In this document: one piece after another, positions 1 to 10,868 of the stretch
Numbering within the stretch: position 1 is the stretch's first letter
How the letters are laid out: every line of letters starts with the position of its first letter
Origin: Eubacteriales bacterium
GTDB taxonomy: Bacteria > Bacillota > Clostridia > Oscillospirales > Butyricicoccaceae
Length of the DNA stretch: 64,000 bases
NCBI GenBank assembly: GCA_030523305.1
Contig: JAUNIY010000002.1
Span: 2-64,001, forward strand
Direction of reading: 5' to 3'
Position numbers and translations under genes: made by a program
Notes under the pieces: model-generated
The model's database searches: none
Told to the model about the DNA's origin: nothing
What the model saw: the letters and a program-made list of their open reading frames with translations, nothing else

Positions 1-276
1 TAAAATCTGTACAAAATTCGGTATAAAATCACGACAATATGGACAGCTTTCACGCCCTACCAATAATATAAATCTATCGTTACAATCTACTTTTTTATTT
101 ATCTCTCTAACATCATATTCTTGAAATTTCTCTAAAGATTTTTCATAATTTTGAATAGAAATTCTTTCTTGTATACAATTCATTAAATATAATGCAGATA
201 CAAAAAATATTAAAATGAAAATGAAACACGATATGATTTTAAAAAAATTTTTGAATATTTGTTTTTTTACTTCCAC
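1..276 (-). CDS. Membrane-anchored thioredoxin-like protein, PedC/BrcD/Bta (bacteriocin accessory disulfide oxidoreductase) type; runs off the left edge
   Basis: Manual translation from GTG at 276 (RBS AAAGGAGG): MEVKKQIFKNFFKIISCFIFILIFFVSALYLMNCIQERISIQNYEKSLEKFQEYDVREINKKVDCNDRFILLVGRESCPYCRDFIPNFVQIL. Open to position 1, with an N-terminal hydrophobic helix and a GRxxCPYCxxFxP motif. Confidence 0.8.
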   Translation of the reverse strand, partial: MEVKKQIFKNFFKIISCFIFILIFFVSALYLMNCIQERISIQNYEKSLEKFQEYDVREINKKVDCNDRFILLVGRESCPYCRDFIPNFVQIL

Positions 277-305: not shown

Positions 306-334
306 ATAATATCACATGCAATATCATTTGTCAA
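306..334 (-). promoter_or_regulatory. sigmaA promoter for the thioredoxin-like gene
   Basis: TTGACA-17 nt-TATTAT on the minus strand. Confidence 0.75.
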
Positions 335-351
335 CAAATATTTTTATTTTT

Positions 352-390
352 CGAAAATAAATTCCCATTCCAAATCAATGGAACGGGAAT
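352..390 (-). terminator. Intrinsic terminator after the secreted-protein gene
   Basis: ATTCCC(g/a)TTCC...GGAA(c/t)GGGAAT inverted repeat followed by a T-rich run on the minus strand. Confidence 0.65.
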
Positions 391-403
391 TACGCAAGCT
401 ATA

Positions 404-853
404 TTATGAAATTGTACCTGTCTTACTGCATGTAATCGTTAATTTTGCCGTTTTTGATGTACTGGAATTACTGAATGTTGCATTTCCATACGCCGTATTT
501 CCTGAGCAATAATATTTGTCTGATTTTTTAGACCAGTTTCCACGCACAACATTGTATTTTGTCGAACATGAGACTGCCTTTGATGTGCTTCCACCGTACT
601 GGAAATACCCTGTCAACGTATAAGTAAACAAAATCTGTCCTGAATTATTTTTATAAGTAAATGTTTTTGTCCCACTTTTTGTATTGGATCGCGTCAGTGT
701 ATCATTTTCTGTTAGTGTAATTTCCGCATAGGTTCCATCCTCATATTGAATGATTTCCTGAACAGTCTCCGCCGCTAATGCATTTCCAGCATACAGACAA
801 ACGCACAAAATCATCCATGACAACACCATAAGTTTTCCAGTTAGTCTTTTCAT
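404..853 (-). CDS. Secreted Ser/Thr/Gly-rich hypothetical protein (predicted beta-rich, 3 Cys in the mature part)
   Basis: Sec-type signal peptide MKRLTGKLMVLSWMILCVCLYAGNALA-A; ATGA overlap with the upstream gene (translational coupling). Confidence 0.8.
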   Translation of the reverse strand: MKRLTGKLMVLSWMILCVCLYAGNALAAETVQEIIQYEDGTYAEITLTENDTLTRSNTKSGTKTFTYKNNSGQILFTYTLTGYFQYGGSTSKAVSCSTKYNVVRGNWSKKSDKYYCSGNTAYGNATFSNSSTSKTAKLTITCSKTGTIS

Positions 854-1383
854 TTTTCTTCCTCCTCAATGAAATATTTCTCTTTATCCAACGGAATACC
901 CTTTTCATCCACTGCAATTTCATTCCCATCATTGTCGGTTGCGCGAACAATAATTCCCTTCTCATCATATTCGTAATTGATACCATATTTGACAGCATAG
1001 TCCCAATATGATGGGAGGCTCTCTGTATAATCAATCACGGTTGTAATCTCTTCCGTATACGGATTTTGAATAAAATACGCCACGGCCGCACAAGCGCCGA
1101 TTGCCACCGCCAAGCAAACGGCAGCCACCGCTGTATACACTTTCTTTTGGTTTTCGCGCGCTTGGTATTTTTCTACTTCGGTTATATCGTACATGAGCTC
1201 CGCCGCCATATGCTCAGGACTGCCCAGAGCCTCAGCGATTTGCTCATATGTAGCTTGTTCGTTGTCGTTCAAATACATTTGGACAATATTCATCAAATCC
1301 TGGTTTTTTTGTTCTTTTTGATCATTTGTGAGATTCAGTAATGTCTCCACATCTTTGATATATAGCGTCCCATTTTGATTCAT
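850..1383 (-). CDS. Single-pass membrane protein with a DUF6120/HAAS-like N-terminal domain
   Basis: Start moved to MNQNG at 1383 (RBS AAAGGGGAG). YIKDV...TYEQIAEALGSPEHMAAE motif, TM helix VYTAVAAVCLAVAIGACAAVAYFI, acidic C-terminal domain. Confidence 0.7.
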   Translation of the reverse strand: MNQNGTLYIKDVETLLNLTNDQKEQKNQDLMNIVQMYLNDNEQATYEQIAEALGSPEHMAAELMYDITEVEKYQARENQKKVYTAVAAVCLAVAIGACAAVAYFIQNPYTEEITTVIDYTESLPSYWDYAVKYGINYEYDEKGIIVRATDNDGNEIAVDEKGIPLDKEKYFIEEEEK

Positions 1384-1584
1384 GTTTTCCGTCTCCCCTT
1401 TCCATTGCAAAATCACATGGATTCCGCCGGTATATTCCAATCATATTGCACAATTTTTGCAAATATATCCTCTTGGTAACACTCTAACATTTGTTCCGCC
1501 AATACTTTGCCGACGCAAACTATTCTATAAAACTAAGTTACCATATTTTCACAGACTTGTCAATATTGAATATTATGAGGCAAC

Positions 1585-1622
1585 AAAAAAATTCCGCAGC
1601 AACAGATACTGCGGAATTTTTA
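1585..1622. terminator. Bidirectional-looking intrinsic terminator after padR
   Basis: AAAAAAATTCCGCAG-caacagata-CTGCGGAATTTTT. Confidence 0.75.
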
Positions 1623-1729
1623 TTTCAAATCATACACCCAAACGCATCTCCGTCATGAATCACATCAGTCAACAGAAAATATCTCTCTTTGCCAGGTCCC
1701 CCGAGCTTCCAAGCACGTTTCAACAGTCC

Positions 1730-2251
1730 TCATACGATGCATCCAGCCAGCCGTCCAGAAAATTCCGGATTGTCCTGATCTTCATCATCCGTTGTTGTTT
1801 CATTCAGCTGCACGTTCGCCGGCTTTTTATCTGACTGCTGTACTTCTGCGTGTTGGGACTTTTTTTCTTGTCCTCCTCTTGATGCTAGAATCGTATTGAC
1901 GCCGCCAGTAAACTGTTCAAACACGTTACATAGCTCTGTCAAATAGGCCTTGCCTTTTTTTGTAATGCCATAGTACTGCCGTTTCCTACCGTCCGGCGCG
2001 ATTCTCTTTTTTAATTCCTCAATGTAATCGAATTTTTCCATGCGGTAAATGACGGAATACGGAAAAACAATACGGAATCTGCCATCGCTCCGCTTTTCCA
2101 GTTCTTCCGGGATTTCACCGATATACATTTCCCGCTCGCTGAGCAAAAACAGCACCAACATTTCTGCAACCGCTTTTTTCATGTTTTCTTCCATTCCGAC
2201 AGCCGAGCCGCTGCGCTCCGGCGTAGCCAATGGATGTGGTTTTCGTCCCAT
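1730..2251 (-). CDS. PadR-family transcriptional regulator with an acidic C-terminal tail
   Basis: MLVLFLLSEREMYIGEI...YSVIYRMEKFDYI...RKRQYYGITKKGKAYL winged-helix signature; RBS AAGGAGG; TTGATT-17-TATACT upstream. Confidence 0.88.
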   Translation of the reverse strand: MGRKPHPLATPERSGSAVGMEENMKKAVAEMLVLFLLSEREMYIGEIPEELEKRSDGRFRIVFPYSVIYRMEKFDYIEELKKRIAPDGRKRQYYGITKKGKAYLTELCNVFEQFTGGVNTILASRGGQEKKSQHAEVQQSDKKPANVQLNETTTDDEDQDNPEFSGRLAGCIV

Positions 2252-2343
2252 GAGACATCCCTCCTTTTTTCTTCTAGTATATATGAATTTTCAAAATAAA
2301 TCAACCATAAAAAAATTATTTCACCAAAAAACCAAAAATTTAT

Positions 2344-2380
2344 AAAAAATCCCTTGCCCATCACACAGACAGGCAAGGGA
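2344..2380 (-). terminator. Terminator of ilvD
   Basis: TCCCTTGCC/GGCAAGGGA stem followed by a T-run on the minus strand. Confidence 0.7.
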
Positions 2381-2400
2381 ATCCACATGTACGATACGAT

Positions 2401-4065
2401 TTAATTGAGCACTGCACCCTTATTGGCCGAAGTGACCAGGCGTGCATAACGCGCAAGCCAACCGGACTTGACCTTCGGCTCATGCGGCACGAAGTTCTCC
2501 CGCCGTCTTGCAAATTCCTCGTCGGAAACCTTTGCATTGACCGTATGGTTCGGGATATCAATCTCAATGATATCGCCTTCCTGCAACAGCCCGATTTCTC
2601 CGCCCATCGCAGCTTCCGGGCAGACATGTCCGATGGATGCGCCGCGGGATGCGCCGGAGAAACGTCCGTCGGTAATCAGCGCAACGTCCTTATCCAGCTT
2701 CATACCAGCCAGCGCAGAGGTCGGGTTGAGCATTTCGCGCATGCCCGGTCCGCCCTTCGGGCCTTCATAGCGGATGATGACAACATCACCCGGGACAATT
2801 CTCCCGTTATAGATCGCGTCAATCGCTTCCTCTTCGCTGTCAAAGACACGCGCTGGACCAGAATGCTTCATCATTTCCGGTGCAACTGCGCTCTGCTTGA
2901 CCGCACAGCCTTCCTTGGCAATATTACCCCACAGGATGGCAATGCCGCCGGTCTGCATGTACGGGTTGTCAATCGGGCGGATGACCTCCGGATTTCTGTT
3001 GAAGCTGTTTGCGATATTCTCGCCAACCTTTTTGCCGGTCGCCGTGATGGTGTCCAGCTCAATCAGGTCTTTCTTGGACAGCTCATTCATCACCGCATAG
3101 ATACCGCCTGCTTCGTTCAGCTCCTGAATATAGGTGCGGCCTGCCGGCGCCAGATGACACAGGTTTGGAGTTTGTGCGGAAATCTGGTTCATGGTTTCCA
3201 GGTCGAAATCCAAGCCTGCTTCATGCGCAATCGCCAACAGATGCAGCACCGTATTGGTCGAGCAGCCCAATGCCATCTCGCATTCCAGTGCATTGTGGAT
3301 TGCCTTCTGATTGATGATATCGCGCGGCTTGATGTCCTTCTCCAACAGCTCCATGATCTTCATGCCGGCATGCTTTGCCAGCTGGATGCGGTCGGAATGG
3401 ACGGCCGGAATGGTGCCGTTGCCTGGAAGCGCCATACCGATCGCTTCACACAGGCAGTTCATCGAATTGGCTGTGTACATACCGGAGCAAGAGCCGCAGC
3501 CCGGACAAGAATGGCACTCGACATCCGTAATTTCTTCATCGGTAATCAGGTTTGCCTTGCGTGCGCCAACGGCTTCAAATGTATATGACAGGGAAACGTT
3601 TTCCCCACGGAAATGTCCGGCAAGCATCGGTCCGCCAGAAATGACAATGGACGGGATGTTGATGCGGGCCGCAGCCATAACCATGCCCGGAACAATTTTG
3701 TCGCAGTTCGGGATGAGCACCAGCGCGTCAAACTGATGTGCCTGTGCCAGCGTTTCCACAGAATCCGCAATCAATTCACGGGACGGCAGCGAATATTTCA
3801 TGCCCATATGGCCCATCGCAATGCCATCGCATACGCCGATTGCCGGTACCAGGATCGGCGTACCACCCGCCATGCTGACACCTGTTTTGACAGCCGCCGC
3901 GATTTTATCCAGATTGATATGCCCCGGAATGATTTCACTATAAGCGGAAACAACGCCGATAATTGGGCGGCTCATTTCCTCCTCGGTCAGGCCGCATGCG
4001 CGCAGCAGCGACCGATTTGGAACACGTTCGACACCCTTTGTGATATTATGACTTCTTAATTCCAT
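2401..4065 (-). CDS. ilvD: Dihydroxy-acid dehydratase
   Basis: [31 protein letters not shown] motifs; start MELRS with GGAGG RBS. Confidence 0.97.
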
Positions 4066-4207
4066 AAAAATACCTCCAAATGCGGTACCATGCCGCAAAA
4101 AAGAAAAACGAGGGGACGGAGACTTTGCCCCATCCCCGTTCTGTTCTTCTATATGGACTTGCCTTATTTATTATAATTATAAAAGAATATATCGGACAAA
4201 TCAACGG

Positions 4208-4699
4208 TCATTTGCCGTCTTTTTTATCCTTATGCACCGCCGTAATGCCAGTGCGGCTGGATTCCACGACATGGAAGCTGTCGATGATAGACAGGAACGT
4301 GTCGATCTTGGACGGCGCGCCGCTCACCCGGACAATGATGGATTCCTTGCTCGAATCGACAACTTCTGCCTGGTACAGCGCGCATACCTCGCGGACACTC
4401 TCGCGCTCTGCCTCATCTCCCGCAATCTTAATCAGCGCCAGCTCGCGGCAGAATGCCTCCTCTTCGTCAATATGCGATACTTCGATACATTCCTCCAGCT
4501 TACGTACCTGCTTCAGTACCTGCTCCAGCGTATATTCGTCGCCCAGTACGACAATCGTAATACGGGATACGGTGCGATCCACCGTCGGGGAAACCGTGAG
4601 TGAATCAATATTGAAGCCGCGGCGGCCAAACAAGCTGGAAACACGCGCCAGCACGCCGGCATTGTTCTGCACAAGGGCAGAAATAATATACTTTTCCAT
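4208..4699 (-). CDS. ilvN: Acetolactate synthase small (regulatory) subunit
   Basis: ACT domain LVQNNAGVLARVSSLFGRRGFNIDSL; C-terminal SRTG; start MEKYI with RBS GAGGAG. Confidence 0.95.
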   Translation of the reverse strand: MEKYIISALVQNNAGVLARVSSLFGRRGFNIDSLTVSPTVDRTVSRITIVVLGDEYTLEQVLKQVRKLEECIEVSHIDEEEAFCRELALIKIAGDEAERESVREVCALYQAEVVDSSKESIIVRVSGAPSKIDTFLSIIDSFHVVESSRTGITAVHKDKKDGK

Positions 4700-4712
4700 A
4701 TTTTTCTCCTCG

Positions 4713-6377
4713 TCAGTCCAGAATAACATTGCGTACCGTCTCCCCGCCCGGGATAAACGGAAGTACGCGTTCTTCTTTATCAATGCGCGCGTCGATCAAA
4801 ACCGGGCCATCCGCTTCCAGCGCTTCCTTCATACATGCTTCAAACCCTGCCAGCGTATCGCAGCGCAGCCCCTTCGCGCCAAATGCCTCCGCCAGCTTGA
4901 CAAAATCCGTCTTGCGGTGCGGATCCGTGTTAGAATACCGTTTGCCATAGAACGAGGTTTGCCACTGATATACCATGCCGAGGACACTGTTGTTGACAAC
5001 AATGGTGATAACCGGCAGGTTGTTGCTGACAGCTGTGCACATTTCCTGTAAATTCATATGGAAGCTGCCGTCGCCCGTGACATGTACAACGCGCTTATTC
5101 GGCTGTCCAACCTGCGCGCCGATGGCTGCGCCATAGCCGTAGCCCATGGTGCCCAGGCCGCCGGAAGTCAAGAATGTCCGCGGTTTGCGGCGGCCGGTAA
5201 ACTGTGCCGCCCACATCTGATGCTGACCAACGTCGGTTGCGACAATGTCGTCCGCACCCAACAGTTCGTTGATTTTCCGCATCAACTGATGCGGACGCAG
5301 TACAGCATCGTTGTCCTTCGGCTTGTAATCCATACGCGTCTTCCAGGTTTCAATCTGTTCTCTCCACGCGGTATGCTCCGTGCGGTCAACCAATGGCATC
5401 AGCGCTTCGAGCACATCGTATGCATCGCCGATAACGCTATGTACAACCTCGATATTCTTGTTGACCTCAGACGGGTCGATATCAACCTGTACGACTTTTG
5501 CACGCGATGCAAAATCACCCATCTTGGTTGCAACACGGTCCGAAAACCGCGTGCCAAGCGCGATAACAAGATCTGCCTTATCTACTGCCCTGCCCGCGGA
5601 AACCCAGCCGTGCATACCGATCAAACCCAGATTCAGCGGGTCTGCCGGGTCAAGTGCGCCAATGCCCATCAGGGAATGGCAGGCCGGCATATCGGTACGA
5701 TGGATAAACTGGTACAGCAGCTCAGAAGCATTGGAGGACATCACGCCGCCGCCAAACAGGATCACCGGGCGTTCGCTTTCGTTAATCATCTCCGCCATCT
5801 TCTTGAGCTGATCGTGCTGGATCGGCGGCTTGGGACGCGGCTGTACTGCCGGTTTGTGTTCAAATTCACAGACAGAAGCTGTGACATCCTTCGGGATATC
5901 AATCAAAACCGGGCCGGGGCGGTCGCTCATGGCGATCTCATATGCCTTCCGGATGGTATCTGCCAGCTCGTTTACATCGCGGACAACAAAGTTGTGCTTT
6001 GTGATCGGCATGGTGACGCCGGCAATATAAATTTCCTGGAAGCTGTCGCGTCCGATCAAGCTGGTTCCAACATTCGCTGTAATCGCAATCATTGGGATAG
6101 AATCCATAAATGCGGTTGCAATGCCGGTGACCAAATTGGTTGCGCCCGGGCCGGACGTTGCGAGGCAGACACCGACCTTGCCGGTAGCGCGCGCATAGCC
6201 GTCTGCCGCATGGGCTGCGCCCTGTTCGTGCGCAGTCAGGACATGACGCATGCGATCAGCATACTTATAGAGTTCATCATAGATGTTGAGGGCTGCGCCG
6301 CCGGGATAACCAAAGATCGTATCGGTTCCCTGCTCCAGAAGTGTCTCAATCACAATCTGCGAACCATTGAGTTTCAT
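4713..6377 (-). CDS. ilvB: Acetolactate synthase large subunit
   Basis: FGYPGGA, HEQGA, TSGPGATN, DVGQHQMWAAQ, GDGSFHMN (TPP motif); start MKLNGSQ. Confidence 0.97.
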   Translation of the reverse strand: MKLNGSQIVIETLLEQGTDTIFGYPGGAALNIYDELYKYADRMRHVLTAHEQGAAHAADGYARATGKVGVCLATSGPGATNLVTGIATAFMDSIPMIAITANVGTSLIGRDSFQEIYIAGVTMPITKHNFVVRDVNELADTIRKAYEIAMSDRPGPVLIDIPKDVTASVCEFEHKPAVQPRPKPPIQHDQLKKMAEMINESERPVILFGGGVMSSNASELLYQFIHRTDMPACHSLMGIGALDPADPLNLGLIGMHGWVSAGRAVDKADLVIALGTRFSDRVATKMGDFASRAKVVQVDIDPSEVNKNIEVVHSVIGDAYDVLEALMPLVDRTEHTAWREQIETWKTRMDYKPKDNDAVLRPHQLMRKINELLGADDIVATDVGQHQMWAAQFTGRRKPRTFLTSGGLGTMGYGYGAAIGAQVGQPNKRVVHVTGDGSFHMNLQEMCTAVSNNLPVITIVVNNSVLGMVYQWQTSFYGKRYSNTDPHRKTDFVKLAEAFGAKGLRCDTLAGFEACMKEALEADGPVLIDARIDKEERVLPFIPGGETVRNVILD

Positions 6378-6444
6378 AGCAATCTCTCCTGCATTGTTTT
6401 TTCGTATACATAGCACGGCGCAATGGAAGCCTGCAATTGCGCCT

Positions 6445-6725
6445 AAATAAAATAAAAAGCCCTTATCTCCATAGAAAAAGAGACAAAGACTATGCTCTGC
6501 GGTACCACTCTTATTGCCGCCGCAAACGGCGACCACTCATGCATCGGCGCAGGCTTCTGCGCGTAATGCTTGCCTGTTAACGGGGGCGCAACCGATTCAA
6601 GTTACTGGCAAACGCCTGTTCACCTGAACTGCTCGCGGACGACGTTCACTTCTTCTCCCTTATTGCCTCACACCAAACGGCAACTCTCTGAAAGTTTGAA
6701 CAAGCTACTCTTTCCGGTCTTTGCA
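6445..6725 (-). promoter_or_regulatory. T-box riboswitch, probable Val (GUC) specifier, with terminator
   Basis: Minus strand shows AAAAGAGTAG (GA/loop E), CAGAGAG (AG box), GGTGTGAG (GNUG), GAAC-GTC-G (specifier at 6641-6643) and the T-box AAGAGTGGTACCGCAG. Terminator GTCTTTGTCTC/GAGATAAGGGC plus T-run. Confidence 0.9.
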
Positions 6726-6745
6726 TTTATATATTTATATTATTC

Positions 6746-6773
6746 ATTATATCTTTAAAATGAAAAATGTCAA
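6746..6773 (-). promoter_or_regulatory. sigmaA promoter of the T-box-ilvBN transcript
   Basis: TTGACA-16 nt-TATAAT. Confidence 0.85.
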
Positions 6774-6822
6774 TACAATTTTGTTGCCCTCGCTATTTTT
6801 TTTGGCTTTTCCAGAAGATTTT

Positions 6823-6852
6823 GTATCATTTGTCTATCGGCCGGGAAGACTG
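6823..6852 (+). promoter_or_regulatory. sigmaF-type (forespore) promoter
   Basis: GTATC-15 nt-GGGAAGACTG versus consensus GYATA-15-GGnnAnAHTR. Confidence 0.6.
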
Positions 6853-6880
6853 ATAGCATAATGATCCGGAGGTGGTTTTT

Positions 6881-7561
6881 TTGTTTCTGCTCTTCATACG
6901 GACCCTGCTGGTCTATGCTGCCGTCATCGGCGGCCTTCGTTTCACCGGAAAACGGCAGCTCGGTGAACTGTCCACCTCGGAATTTGCCGTTACCATATTG
7001 GTTTCCGAGCTGGCCTCCATCCCGCTGCAGGATACCGCCGTACCATTGCTCGGCGGCATCGTCCCCTTGGCTACCCTGCTCGCTGTGGAAGTCTTGTTGT
7101 CCTATCTGTGCCGCAAAAGCCGCCGGTTCCGCAAGCTGCTGTGCGGAAACCCCTGCATTGTCATTCGCGACGGGCAATTTGACCCTCAAATGCTGCGGCT
7201 GCTCCGCCTATCTCCCGAAGACATTCTTGACGGGCTGCGCATGGCAGGCGTCTCCAATATACAGGACGTCCGCTATGGCATCGTGGAAACCAATGGCCAA
7301 CTGAGCGTAATTTTACACGCCGACCGGCAGCCGATGACTCCCTCCGACTGCCTGCTGCATCCGAAGGAGGTTGGCCTGGCAACCATCCTGGTTTCCGAAG
7401 GAAAAATCCTACAATGCAATGCGCAGCAGCTCGGGAAGGATGAACAATGGATCCTGCAGCAGTGCCGTCGGCACGGGATCTCTTCATTGCAAGAAGTCTT
7501 TCTCATGACAGTAGACGACCAGGACAATCTGTTCCTGCAACGACAGGAGCGTGCTGTATGA
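6881..7561 (+). CDS. DUF421 (YetF-family) membrane protein
   Basis: LRFTGKRQLGELSTSEFAVTILVSELA, GIVETNGQLSV; TTG start after GGAGGT. Confidence 0.9.
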   Translation: MFLLFIRTLLVYAAVIGGLRFTGKRQLGELSTSEFAVTILVSELASIPLQDTAVPLLGGIVPLATLLAVEVLLSYLCRKSRRFRKLLCGNPCIVIRDGQFDPQMLRLLRLSPEDILDGLRMAGVSNIQDVRYGIVETNGQLSVILHADRQPMTPSDCLLHPKEVGLATILVSEGKILQCNAQQLGKDEQWILQQCRRHGISSLQEVFLMTVDDQDNLFLQRQERAV

Positions 7562-8525: not shown

Positions 8526-9686
8526 TCAATTTTGCCAATTCACTTGTTTCTTCATGAGCAAATACGAAAGCAAATCCCTATAAATATCCGAAATGGTTTT
8601 TCGCTCCACATCCGCCGCCGCCAAAATGTCCCTGCGGTCAATTTCTTTTCCATTGCTCAAAACCACCACTTCTCCGAGCGGATCGCCCTTGCGTACTGGG
8701 GCCTGCACATGATCTTCCAGATGGATCTCCCGTGTAATCCCTTCCGCTTCCGACTTTTCCATGAGGATCGCGGTCTGATCCGCAAGTTCTACTGCTACGG
8801 CATCCTGCACGCCCATATCCACTGCTACGCTTTCAAGCTCCTGACCCTCTGCCAAAATATCTGTCATAGCATAATTGGCAAAGCCATAATTCAGCATAGC
8901 AGTGATGTCCGCATTGCGCGATTCCTTATCCGGCTCTCCCATGACAACTGCGATCAGCCGCATGCCGTCCCGTTCTGCTACCGCAGAAATACAATAGCCC
9001 GCCGTACTCGTATACCCGGTTTTCAACCCGATCATACCGTCATACAGCCGCAGCATTTTGTTGGTATTGGCCAAACCAAATTCGCCATTGCGCACAGTAT
9101 CCATCCAGATCGAGGTGTATTCCAGGATTTTTTCATGCTTGAGCAGCTCCTGTGAAATCAACGCCAGGTCGCGCGCCGTTGTCTTGGTTTCTTCCCCATC
9201 TGTGTCCAGGCCGTTTGGATTGACAAACGTCGTTCCTGTGCATCCCAGTGCCGCTGCGCGCTCATTCATCATAGAAACAAAGGCGTCTTCACTGCCGCCC
9301 AAATGCTCCGCCACTGCCACCGCCGCATCGTTGGCCGATGCTACGGCAATCGACTTGAGCATATCATCCAGCGACATCTGTTCTCCCTCTTTCAAATAAA
9401 TCTGCGAACCGCCCATCTCCGCCGCATGAGCGGACGCAGTGACCAGATCATCCAGCGAGGCCTTGCCGCTGTCAACCGCCTCCATCATCAGCAGCATCGT
9501 CATAATTTTCGTGACCGAAGCCGGCGGATGCACTTCGTCTGCGTTTTGTTCAAACAGCACTTGCCCATCGTCCGTCGTCAGGATGGCAGATTTCGCGCTC
9601 ACCTCACCCAGCTCTGCTGCCGACGCGCAAACCGATGTGGCCAGCAGACAAAACACCGCTGCCGCAGCTGCAAACAATCGTTTCAT
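8526..9686 (-). CDS. D-alanyl-D-alanine carboxypeptidase (peptidase S11, DacB/DacF type)
   Basis: Signal peptide, PASVTK (SxxK), SAN (SxN), KTG; PBP5 C-terminal domain. Confidence 0.93.
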   Translation of the reverse strand: MKRLFAAAAAVFCLLATSVCASAAELGEVSAKSAILTTDDGQVLFEQNADEVHPPASVTKIMTMLLMMEAVDSGKASLDDLVTASAHAAEMGGSQIYLKEGEQMSLDDMLKSIAVASANDAAVAVAEHLGGSEDAFVSMMNERAAALGCTGTTFVNPNGLDTDGEETKTTARDLALISQELLKHEKILEYTSIWMDTVRNGEFGLANTNKMLRLYDGMIGLKTGYTSTAGYCISAVAERDGMRLIAVVMGEPDKESRNADITAMLNYGFANYAMTDILAEGQELESVAVDMGVQDAVAVELADQTAILMEKSEAEGITREIHLEDHVQAPVRKGDPLGEVVVLSNGKEIDRRDILAAADVERKTISDIYRDLLSYLLMKKQVNWQN

Positions 9687-9730
9687 GCTCCTATCCCCCA
9701 TATCAGTCAAATCCGTTTTTTGTTCCCCAC

Positions 9731-9758
9731 ACCTTATGCATCAAACAGGACTGACATG
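9731..9758 (-). promoter_or_regulatory. sigmaE-type (mother cell) promoter candidate
   Basis: CATG-16 nt-CATAAGGT, resembling CATA-16-CATAnnnT. Confidence 0.45.
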
Positions 9759-9769
9759 CAGATATTCGT

Positions 9770-10234
9770 TCATTTTTCCGGAAATAGCTTACCAAATACT
9801 ATCCGAACCAGCGGCCCGGCAGCAAACAGCTGCCAAAAAAACGCCATCGGAAAATTGCGGACCGTCAGCTCAACCCACACGGACAGCAATTGTCTGTGTA
9901 GTTCATCCTGAAACAATACGGCCGCAACAAAACTCATCATCGGGCACATCAGCCAAATAGAACAGACAGAGATAGCGAGAATAAGAAAGATCGGTTTGTC
10001 CTGTCCCGGTTGGAACAGAGCAAACGCCAGCTTTTTGGCAATTGGCCCCGCGACGAACAGATCCAGCAAAAAGCCTGCCGCGCCCATGATCGGCAGCTCA
10101 CCGAAGGCTGCAAAGAAAATCCAGTTTTCCATACTACCATTATCCATCGCAATGTTGTAGCATATCATTGCATATACCATAACGCAAACCATCATAACGG
10201 TGTAAATCATTTCCTGTTTTAAATTTTTTGGCAT
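9770..10234 (-). CDS. DUF2798-like multi-pass membrane protein
   Basis: Four hydrophobic segments; MMVCVMVYAMICYN and RNFPMAFFWQLFAAGPLVR motifs; RBS GGAGG. Confidence 0.78.
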   Translation of the reverse strand: MPKNLKQEMIYTVMMVCVMVYAMICYNIAMDNGSMENWIFFAAFGELPIMGAAGFLLDLFVAGPIAKKLAFALFQPGQDKPIFLILAISVCSIWLMCPMMSFVAAVLFQDELHRQLLSVWVELTVRNFPMAFFWQLFAAGPLVRIVFGKLFPEK

Positions 10235-10266
10235 TGTTTCTTCCTCCATTACCAGCTTTTATGCAC

Positions 10267-10311
10267 AAAAAAAGCAGTGGAATCGCAAAACTCGTTGCGA
10301 CCTCCACTGCT
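10267..10311 (-). terminator. Intrinsic terminator just upstream of the DUF2798 RBS
   Basis: CAGCAGTGGAGGTCGCAA...TTGCGATTCCACTGC-TTTTTTT on the minus strand. Confidence 0.75.
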
Positions 10312-10490
10312 GTTATGTACATCTCACTGCGTTTTTATATTATTTTGTTTCCATTATCATAACATATTATCCCAAGCGATGTAAGTGCTTTTTATGATTT
10401 CAGCAGAATGCATCATTGATTCTGCTGCTACATATCTGTATTGATGCATTTTTCCTCTACAGGCTTTTTTTATCCTGTCCACTGTGTCCA

Positions 10491-10724
10491 TTACACCATC
10501 ATGGTCTGAATGCGATCCAAAAACGGCTGCGCATGGAGTCGATCCGTATAAATACTGACGCGAATCGGCTTGGACAGCTTCAGTCCAAACAATCCGATCA
10601 ACGATTTTGCATCCACCACATACCATCCGGAAGCGGCATCAATGTCAAACGGCATGTCCGAAGCCGCCGCATTCAACACGGTAAGATCATCTACCTTATC
10701 CAACTTAATTTTTATCTTTACCAT
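10491..10724 (-). CDS. HPr-like protein lacking His15
   Basis: 77 aa MVKIKIKLDK...SGWYVVDAKSLIGLFGLKLSKPI; DAKS (Ser46 region) conserved, no GxHARP motif. Confidence 0.85.
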   Translation of the reverse strand: MVKIKIKLDKVDDLTVLNAAASDMPFDIDAASGWYVVDAKSLIGLFGLKLSKPIRVSIYTDRLHAQPFLDRIQTMMV

Positions 10725-10868
10725 TCTGAAAACCACCCCAATGCAGCGATGTAAAAGCTGTTGTAACTCCTTGTAAAATTTATTATAATACAAGTAACAA
10801 AAACATGCTATCCTTTTTACCAAAAATTCATTTAAATTTTTCAAAAGGAAGCGCAGGAAGGAGTCACC

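Follow-up and report, generated by a model that had tools for sequence, protein, structure and literature searches.

The stretch of DNA analysed here (hereafter the window; 64,000 nt, positions 2 to 64,001 of contig JAUNIY010000002.1 in assembly GCA_030523305.1, from an Eubacteriales bacterium of the family Butyricicoccaceae) carries close to its left end a cassette of three genes, which encode a PadR-family repressor (P), a single-pass membrane protein with a HAAS/DUF6120-like cytoplasmic domain (H) and a small protein predicted to be exported by the Sec pathway (S). The same three gene families stand next to one another in gut and rumen Bacillota of differing genera, and between near-identical strains the predicted outside part of H is replaced together with S as a bounded, highly divergent block. 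What is new is the pairing of a single-pass, DUF6120-type H with an exported S, the pairing of PadR with HAAS proteins having already been described. The cassette may represent a three-part variant of the HAAS-PadR switch, in which H and S would receive a signal outside the cell and PadR would provide the output.

Conservation and distribution of the cassette

Related loci were surveyed with hidden Markov models (HMMs) that had been built from the partners of S; matches on neighbouring open reading frames (ORFs) still represent independent tests of homology. The PadR, H and S families were adjacent in ~90 loci, and because the same three families adjoin in so many loci from different genera, the association lies far beyond chance. 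Eighty of the loci were obtained from one-genome-per-species contigs (Oscillospiraceae, Acutalibacteraceae, Lachnospiraceae, Ruminococcaceae and Erysipelotrichaceae) and include those of two cultured carriers, Thomasclavelia cocleata DSM 1551 and Claveliimonas monacensis DSM 108991. When S genes in loci from genome contigs and assemblies were scored, 73 of 92 were preceded by P and H on the same strand in the order P-H-S. An association of the HAAS-like protein with PadR and a secreted protein, as postulated in an initial annotation made from the sequence alone, is thus conserved. The remaining S genes were mostly found in the arrangements PHHS, PHSH, HHSP, HSP or HPS, and partnerless loci occurred only at contig ends. 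The ATGA overlap of H and S in the window, which had been read as translational coupling, recurs as the same -4 overlap in 14 related loci, the distance between the two genes being mostly at most ~25 nt, and P and H overlap in most loci. The close relatives of the window locus (L001–L004) share the order ilvB-ilvN-ilvD-P-H-S, followed by SH3_3 or Amidase_6 genes. A distant homologue of S (36% identity) lies in another context, again after a PadR gene and a bona fide DUF6120 gene.

The cassette belongs to the accessory gene content and has a patchy distribution. In a sample of the class, S was detected in 8 of 399 genomes, and all full-length matches outside the window's own genome (5/5) had P and H beside S. 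Within the same genus, 11 of 24 species-level genomes contained S, at widely differing scores; ten further S-bearing genomes of this genus all contained P and H as well (10/10). No S gene was found in 37 sampled genomes from other genera of the family or order, and a sample of the phylum yielded 3 carriers among 401 genomes. The genome from which the window derives holds one copy of S. A fourth conserved gene was not found, since the largest neighbour family reached 3 of 68 loci downstream and 8 of 71 loci upstream of the cassette.

DUF6120 is not mentioned in the literature searched and the triad is likewise not described there, while the term "HAAS domain" was found in only two works, both from the group that named it. 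The initial statement that no characterised system has this layout calls for qualification, as PadR-HAAS dyads have been described (PMC11237479) and a PadR-DUF1700-DUF4097 operon was tested in Listeria (PMC6624303).

The membrane protein, the exported protein and their joint replacement

H carries ...TYEQIAEALGSPEHMAAE... and is predicted to comprise a cytoplasmic helical HAAS domain with the motif G54-S-P56, one transmembrane helix (residues 82–105, nt 1069–1140) and an outside domain of 72 aa (residues 106–177, nt 853–1068) that contains a hairpin motif similar to YD repeats and is acidic at its end. In the clade of the window, this ectodomain conforms to the pattern EITTVIDYT..LPSYWDYAEKYGINYEYD..G.I..ATDN.GNEI.VD..GIP.DKEKY. 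The N-terminus was placed inside the cell because Lys and Arg residues precede the transmembrane helix, with acidic residues coming after it; the protein had been described as a single-pass membrane protein with a short cytoplasmic domain, which agrees with this topology.

A search of H against Pfam with hmmscan gave no significant match and no direct match to the HAAS family either, and the DUF6120 model (PF19615), absent from the hmmscan list at E≤1, scored H directly at 13.4 bits (E 0.16, cut-off 27). Profile-profile alignment with hhalign, in contrast, matched the window-type H profile to the DUF6120/HAAS partners of S elsewhere with a probability of 97.9% (E 3.6e-13, 122 columns). These partners match PF19615 and/or PF22564 (HAAS), several of them above cut-off (80.3, 50.8, 29.3 and 29.2 bits; the PF19615 scores are 80.3 for L005, 50.8 for L013 and 29.2 for L014). 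The GSP motif (G54-S55-P56) is invariant across the H family, and an AlphaFold2 (AF2) model of the homologue at L020 consists of helices at residues 6–18, 23–43, 49–56 and 59–69, with a break at G57-T-P59, followed by a long transmembrane helix. By these comparisons, H of the window is best regarded as HAAS/DUF6120-like. As it remains below the cut-off while partners in related loci such as L005, L013 and L014 pass it, H appears to be a divergent relative rather than a formal member of DUF6120, whose typical members lack the extra 72-aa ectodomain. The DUF6120/HAAS label given initially is therefore supported by profile-profile comparison and the invariant GxP, but not by a direct match. The tails of H are constrained: acidic tails were found in 81 of 84 loci, with aromatic and alternating-hydrophobic motifs in common.

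S is rich in Ser, Thr and Lys, and its mature part holds three Cys residues, which together with the predicted signal peptide and its ALA/AE site fits the earlier description as a Sec-secreted Ser/Thr/Cys protein of 149 aa. A word-index search yielded nine relatives, whereas a profile search of 1.84 billion representatives returned 1,667 clusters (50% identity) at E≤1e-3 and 1,094 at 1e-10, with family members almost all 145–170 aa long. Among 154 members, conservation comprises a signal peptide with A/V-x-A, the residues D39-G40-x-Y42, K63, Y67, W/F76, F84-x-Y86-x-G88 and W107, an invariant Cys142 with a partner Cys at column 93 in 85 of the 154, and a C-terminus that always reads L-[TS]-C-[SD]-x-x-G-x-[LI]-S. 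No consistent match to the family was obtained in Pfam, NCBIfam or the PDB sequences, and a fold search with the S model gave nothing meaningful in BFVD. The S family is large and has neither a name nor a model.

The fold class of S was read from the secondary-structure summary of its AF2 model, which shows an antiparallel meander of eight strands with a predicted local distance difference test score (pLDDT) of 85.2, exceeding 90 over most of the mature part. A second AF2 model, from another subfamily, has the same eight-strand topology. Foldseek searches of the PDB with both models placed Listeria Lmo2686/Zea (4K15) at the top (probability 1.0, TM-score 0.41–0.54, E≥3e-3, root-mean-square deviation 8–11 Å), followed by lower matches to ToxS (8alo_B; probability 0.97, TM-score 0.42) and VtrC (5kev_B and 8dml_B; probability ~0.5, TM-score 0.35–0.38), all with E-values >1e-3. 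These matches to Zea, ToxS and VtrC are leads suggested by models and not family memberships. A sequence relation to Zea or DUF5626 is not supported, as PF18540 (DUF5626) is matched weakly by 3 of 144 S members and no PDB sequence was matched. The profile and structure searches proposed for both proteins thus describe H as HAAS/DUF6120-like by profile-profile comparison and S as belonging to an unnamed eight-strand family.

The relationship between the outside parts of the two proteins emerged from comparison with the close relative L003. Over positions 9000 to 1040 (the ilv genes, the PadR gene, the spacer and codons 1–114 of H), identity between window and L003 is 98.1%; blastn gives no match between 1040 and 535, then 87% identity over 535–328. 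At the protein level, P and the cytoplasmic and transmembrane parts of H are 100% identical, whereas identity drops to ~45% in the H ectodomain and ~50% in mature S, returning to 95% in the last 20 residues of S. Synonymous divergence (dS) is saturated inside the block (1.55–2.03) and low outside it (0.04–0.10); the ratio of non-synonymous to synonymous divergence (dN/dS) inside is ~0.2–0.3. Since dS is saturated only inside, the block is an old allele that was imported by recombination and not the product of local drift. A bounded block starting at the junction of transmembrane helix and ectodomain was seen in two further, unrelated pairs (L022/L030 and L028/L079). Across the three independent pairs, P and the cytoplasmic part of H are 78–100% identical, the H ectodomain 30–44% and mature S ~50%, and saturated dS is found only inside the block. 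The outside unit thus appears, from these alignments, to exist as divergent allelic types that are moved between strains by recombination.

The segments of the cassette also co-vary in a corresponding manner. Among 13 loci of the genus, segment identities correlate at 0.86 for P and the cytoplasmic part of H, 0.78 for the H ectodomain and S, 0.70 for the two parts of H and 0.50 for P and S, the locus pairs behind these values not being independent data points. Comparison of the window with L001 reveals the reverse mosaic, with 49% identity in the cytoplasmic part of H, 71% in its ectodomain and 77% in S. Because the correlations of P with the cytoplasmic part and of the ectodomain with S both exceed that between the two halves of H, these halves appear to follow different partners, a pattern that would be expected if the HAAS domain works with PadR inside the cell and the ectodomain with S outside. 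Coupling of the genes, co-replacement of the block and the higher correlation of the ectodomain with S than with the cytoplasmic part provide indirect support, at the level of sequence, for a link between the H ectodomain and S.

Layout of the locus in the window

The features of the locus are compiled in Table 1. All genes named in the initial annotation, including the CPYC thioredoxin-like fragment, are present on one strand. The source genome (2.79 Mb, 251 contigs, G+C content 50.4%) resembles a metagenome-assembled genome, and inspection of the sequence to the left of the window revealed that the contig starts 1 nt further on, so that the thioredoxin-like gene is cut. The AT-rich block claimed for this region was confirmed: the G+C content ranges from 0.25 to 0.46 across positions 1–2400, as against 0.504 genome-wide and 0.52–0.58 in the neighbouring ilvD, ilvN and ilvB genes, and climbs from 0.25 at the left edge to 0.37–0.46 over S, H and P.

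Table 1. Positions of the cassette and of adjacent features (window coordinates).
Feature	Position	Strand	Basis and remarks
PadR gene P, winged-helix repressor, 173 aa	1730..2251	-	Pfam PF03551, E 4.1e-9, 36.8 bits (cut-off 27)
Membrane protein gene H, single-pass, HAAS/DUF6120-like, 177 aa from ATG (MNQNG)	850..1383	-	Profile-profile comparison and motif
Exported protein gene S, predicted Sec substrate, 149 aa	404..853	-	Signal peptide 1–28, predicted cleavage ALA/AE
Replaced/hypervariable block, H ~115–177 and S 1–~106	535..1040	-	Gap in blastn alignment with L003; dS
Overlap ATGA of H stop and S start (translational coupling)	850..853	-	Sequence
Promoter-like site of the PadR gene, TTGATT-17-TATACT	2276..2304	-	Consensus scan, 9/12; putative function
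Hairpin and U-run after PadR, intrinsic-terminator-like	1583..1621	-	15-bp stem, -20.3 kcal/mol, z -7.48
Possible promoter of the H-S unit, TTGACA-17-TAACTT, with TG in front of it	1535..1563	-	Read by eye; putative
Hairpin after S, intrinsic-terminator-like, end of module	360..391	-	-19.2 kcal/mol, z -5.0
Decayed remnant of a HAAS N-terminus, MMKIRTIRNFLDGWLDASYEDC*NVLGSSGDL (also …FLDGWLDASYEDC*NVLGSSGDL…), overlapping the PadR 3' end	1671..1788	-	Visual motif comparison
5' fragment of a membrane-anchored CPYC thioredoxin-like gene, PedC/BrcD-like; not a module member	1..276	-	92 codons, cut by contig end
Promoter of the thioredoxin-like gene, TTGACA-17-TATTAT	306..334	-	11/12 consensus matches, with TG

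P possesses an N-terminal extension of 25 aa and an acidic, low-complexity C-terminal tail, and its ribosome-binding site (AAGGAGG) lies 8 nt upstream of the ATG. The hexamers of its promoter-like site are conserved in an alignment with L001, L003 and L004. None of 200 shuffled sequences (0/200) was as stable as the hairpin downstream of the gene. The promoter-like site in front of H and S has a weak -10 element and was not listed by the consensus scan; it is identical in L003. With the hairpin between them, P and the H-S pair are predicted to form separate transcription units in the window. The proposal of a single four-gene unit was accordingly not borne out, given terminators after both PadR and S and a separate promoter for the thioredoxin-like gene.

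The frame of the HAAS remnant is broken by a stop codon and its GSP motif has become GSS. Its translation was compared with the first H protein of L001 (…FLENYPNALYEDFLTAFGSPEYM) and with H of L004 (…FLDDCPDASYEDILTACGSPTDV), both of which start at that position; a tblastn search gave no match, so that the call is one of visual motif comparison only. Because the functional H gene of L004 starts there and L001 has two H genes, the window lineage has probably duplicated H and lost the first copy. Terminator and promoter now sit inside the remains of this first copy. Elsewhere in the same genome (C9:15773–18708, minus strand), there is a second, ordinary pair of PadR and HAAS genes, the latter encoding a 360-aa membrane protein, with no S homologue.

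Several observations concern the surroundings of related loci. At L039, L053, L057, L062, L063, L064, L077 and L086 (8/71 loci), a divergent gene upstream of PadR encodes a large secreted protein of the CBM96 type; among three copies scanned, one contained a RicinB-lectin domain and another a metallopeptidase domain (Reprolysin_5). At L005, whose H is a bona fide DUF6120 protein, a 97-aa protein with a signal peptide (6791–7084, minus strand) and an FtsX/ABC transporter (3670–6783, minus strand) are divergent from the PadR promoter region and are possible local targets of that PadR. The cassette had no match in a plasmid search and none in IMG/VR contigs. A full P-H-S cassette was found at 7217–8483 of L107 (MT836041.1), a human faecal scaffold labelled "UNVERIFIED Bacteriophage sp." that also carries a large serine recombinase gene (1333–3096) and a reverse-transcriptase-like ORF (9004–10731); it could be a mobile element or else bacterial DNA that was sorted wrongly.

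Proposed mechanism and alternatives

HAAS proteins and PadR-like winged helix-turn-helix (HTH) regulators form dyads, and these have been put forward as a substitute for two-component signalling (Ravi, Anantharaman, Aravind, Gennaro et al., mSystems 2024, PMC11237479). In the same paper, which named the domain, HAAS is defined by a three-helix domain with a GxP kink, and the model given there is that its groove holds or reconfigures PadR upon a signal from the attached sensor. The cassette shares with these dyads a standalone PadR next to a membrane protein with an N-terminal HAAS domain, the invariant GSP and helix break at GxP, and the order of HAAS domain and membrane module, here a single helix (82–105). 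It differs in that the sensors of the dyads are fused multi-transmembrane or intracellular modules (PspC, LiaF-TM, Toastrack, FtsX, FtsW), whereas here a single helix with a short tail is combined with a third constant partner, a separate Sec-exported beta protein. Three genes in the order PadR, HAAS and third protein are also found in the Listeria monocytogenes operon encoding LltR (PadR), Lmo0600 (DUF1700/HAAS) and Lmo0601 (DUF4097), which is autorepressed ~150-fold, the LltR regulon being mainly its own operon (Hauf et al., Sci Rep 2019, PMC6624303). Lmo0600, however, spans the membrane several times, the third protein is of the DUF4097/Toastrack type and allelic block replacement was not reported.

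A single-pass regulator with a small beta-barrel co-sensor is known from VtrA/VtrC and ToxR/ToxS (Li et al., eLife 2016, PMC4933562; Kinch et al., PNAS 2022, PMC9214523), and the genes of VtrA/VtrC-type co-components overlap, evolve fast and occur in gut bacteria (PMC9214523). In these systems, a single-pass membrane regulator can depend on a lipocalin-like barrel partner, the two outside domains forming an obligate heterodimer. A single-pass membrane protein and overlapping genes (ATGA in the window) are common to these systems and the cassette, and S, an eight-strand meander in its models, would correspond to the barrel. VtrA and ToxR, unlike H, contain their own DNA-binding domain; the cytoplasmic part of H is a HAAS domain without an HTH, and DNA binding resides on the separate PadR. 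VtrC and ToxS remain anchored in the membrane by their N-terminus, in contrast to S with its canonical AxA cleavage site; their structural similarity to S is weak (TM-score 0.35–0.42), sequence similarity is lacking and the host of the cassette is Gram-positive.

We put at about even odds the reading that the cassette is a Gram-positive, three-part co-component variant of the HAAS-PadR switch, with H and S as the receiver and PadR as the output. PadR would supply the output by binding to DNA and is probably a repressor of its own cassette at least. H, held in the membrane by its single helix, would bind or reconfigure PadR through the GxP groove of the cytoplasmic HAAS domain, a contact that we infer by analogy with the published model; the correlation of 0.86 between P and the cytoplasmic part of H is indirect evidence for it. 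S would be made together with H from overlapping or adjacent genes, exported by the Sec pathway and freed of its signal peptide, and would then associate extracellularly with the tail of H, a short, acidic and strand-prone segment that in this genus is the 72-aa ectodomain. The resulting complex would be the unit that receives the signal, S providing an eight-strand meander like those with which VtrC and ToxS hold small hydrophobic ligands. Binding of a ligand, or loss of S, could then change H such that PadR is released or captured.

Several points weigh against this reading. In a fourth pair of loci (L019/L024), the replaced block begins at the border of P and H, and linkage alone, with breakpoints in the nearest conserved stretch, could explain part of the co-variation of H ectodomain and S. 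The terminator-like hairpin at 1583–1621 sets PadR apart from H and S transcriptionally in the window. Enumeration of inverted repeats upstream of 83 PadR genes returned only AT-rich noise in the search for an operator, and footprinting among close relatives returned promoter hexamers and no clear palindrome. The fold matches of S are weak (TM-score 0.35–0.54, E>1e-3) and the best of them, Zea, is not a co-sensor. Charge complementarity with the acidic tails of H was rejected, as S is not consistently basic (median net charge -1; 27 positive, 49 negative). A natural in-frame read-through fusion of H and S (L020) was also modelled with AF2 as a monomer (stops read as Gly, 17 paired rows, no predicted aligned error (PAE) available). 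No docking was observed (predicted TM-score 0.43), and the tail of H was unstructured (pLDDT <50 at residues 118–132). Complementation of the S fold by a strand from the H tail was dropped on account of this disordered tail, the monomer model without PAE being a weak test.

Two further observations concern fused or similar H and S sequences. In the representative library, P0044 (288 aa) comprises HAAS domain, transmembrane helix, signal peptide and S domain in one ORF, either by read-through or frameshift or as a real fusion; the topology would be odd if the fusion were real, and since the signal peptide is retained, it is probably a read-through product or an assembly error and was given no weight. 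In two loci of Erysipelotrichales/Bacilli (L085, 164–1045, and L052, 483–1295), the N-terminus of mature S (EYYYEETIEVIE) and the tail of the H protein encoded beside it (PVEYEETIEEIE) are closely similar.

The main alternative, which we consider unlikely, yet worth serious attention, is that S is the output of the cassette, as it may be if the cassette has no other target. PadR and HAAS would then sense membrane or envelope stress via H alone, and S would be an effector, perhaps a Zea-like oligomer and, for instance, a secreted or wall-associated protective or binding protein, with the H tail varying by mere adjacency. The cassette needs some output, S alone among its products is non-regulatory and no further conserved gene lies close by; the LltR regulon consists mainly of its own operon (PMC6624303), and S was not docked to H in the L020 fusion model. 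The best fold match of both S models, Zea of L. monocytogenes (Lmo2686, PDB 4K15; Pagliuso et al., Cell Host Microbe 2019, PMC6907008), is likewise a small, Sec-secreted, beta-rich Firmicute protein, a secreted oligomer from an operon induced by cell-envelope stress through CesRK (PMC6686043, PMC6907008). Zea forms a hexamer and binds RNA. The models of S, however, superimpose on it loosely (TM-score 0.41–0.54, 8–11 Å), no consistent sequence link was found (DUF5626 matched weakly in 3/144 S members), and the genomic context of zea comprises Mg-ATPase, FtsW2 and RodA3 genes and neither PadR nor HAAS. Constraint on composition and motifs of the H tails would also be unexpected for a mere spacer, recombination blocks begin at the junction of transmembrane helix and ectodomain in 3 of 4 pairs, and ATGA coupling suggests matched amounts of H and S, as in protein complexes.

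Rather improbable, in our estimation, is a third explanation, in which S is a protein ligand and the H ectodomain its receptor. The pair would be polymorphic, with allelic specificity types kept under balancing selection, comparable to agr or com pherotypes, and would serve cell-cell or kin signalling with self-induction, wired to PadR via HAAS instead of a histidine kinase. In backgrounds that are nearly identical, the bounded blocks coincide exactly with S and the outside portion of H, the presumed receptor; their divergence is old (saturated dS) with purifying selection within alleles (dN/dS ~0.2–0.3), and S is patchy within one genus (11/24 genomes, very different scores). A feedback loop would result, since the S gene is part of the cassette, which is probably under the control of PadR. 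However, autoinducers are not usually folded proteins of ~125 aa, the pattern is also that of surface proteins exposed to phage or immune pressure, and only three or four replacement events were seen.

Very improbable is the four-gene module of the initial annotation, in which the downstream CPYC thioredoxin would form the disulfide of S: the gene is adjacent on the same strand, its product is membrane-anchored and faces outward, and S has a conserved Cys pair (invariant C142, with C93 in 85/154), but no thioredoxin homologue was found near ~85 related loci (or elsewhere in the genome), close relatives carry SH3_3 or Amidase_6 genes at this position, the thioredoxin gene follows a terminator downstream of S and has a strong promoter of its own, its composition is different (G+C content 25% versus 37–45%), synteny with L003 stops at window position ~328, and its best family match is the thiol-disulfide isomerase PedC/BrcD of bacteriocin maturation. 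The fragment matches this family (NCBIfam TIGR01295) with E 5.2e-10 and 39.4 bits against a cut-off of 120, CPYC motif and anchor being present; the score is low because only 92 N-terminal residues exist on the contig. The gene most likely belongs to another locus that is cut off by the contig end. The low G+C content, the near-perfect promoter, the break in synteny and the contig end are together a hint of an inserted bacteriocin-type locus that was left unassembled.

Pairs of HAAS and PadR proteins have been proposed, on the basis of comparative genomics, as a widespread alternative to two-component systems, and the cassette bears on the manner in which they receive signals from outside the cell. 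It is the simplest form of HAAS-PadR system seen so far, with one transmembrane helix and a separate exported partner, and it defines an unnamed exported family of >1,000 clusters with a strict three-gene architecture. Gut Firmicutes of humans and animals commonly carry the cassette, two cultured strains among them, so that the question of outside signals can now be put to the test. A recombining, allelic outside module is of the kind seen in receptor-ligand or surface-antigen systems, and were S and the H ectodomain indeed ligand and receptor, the cassette would constitute a protein-based pherotype or kin-recognition system of gut Firmicutes. The block-wise exchange of the outside parts between near-identical strains suggests a way of sensing the environment that has not been described before.

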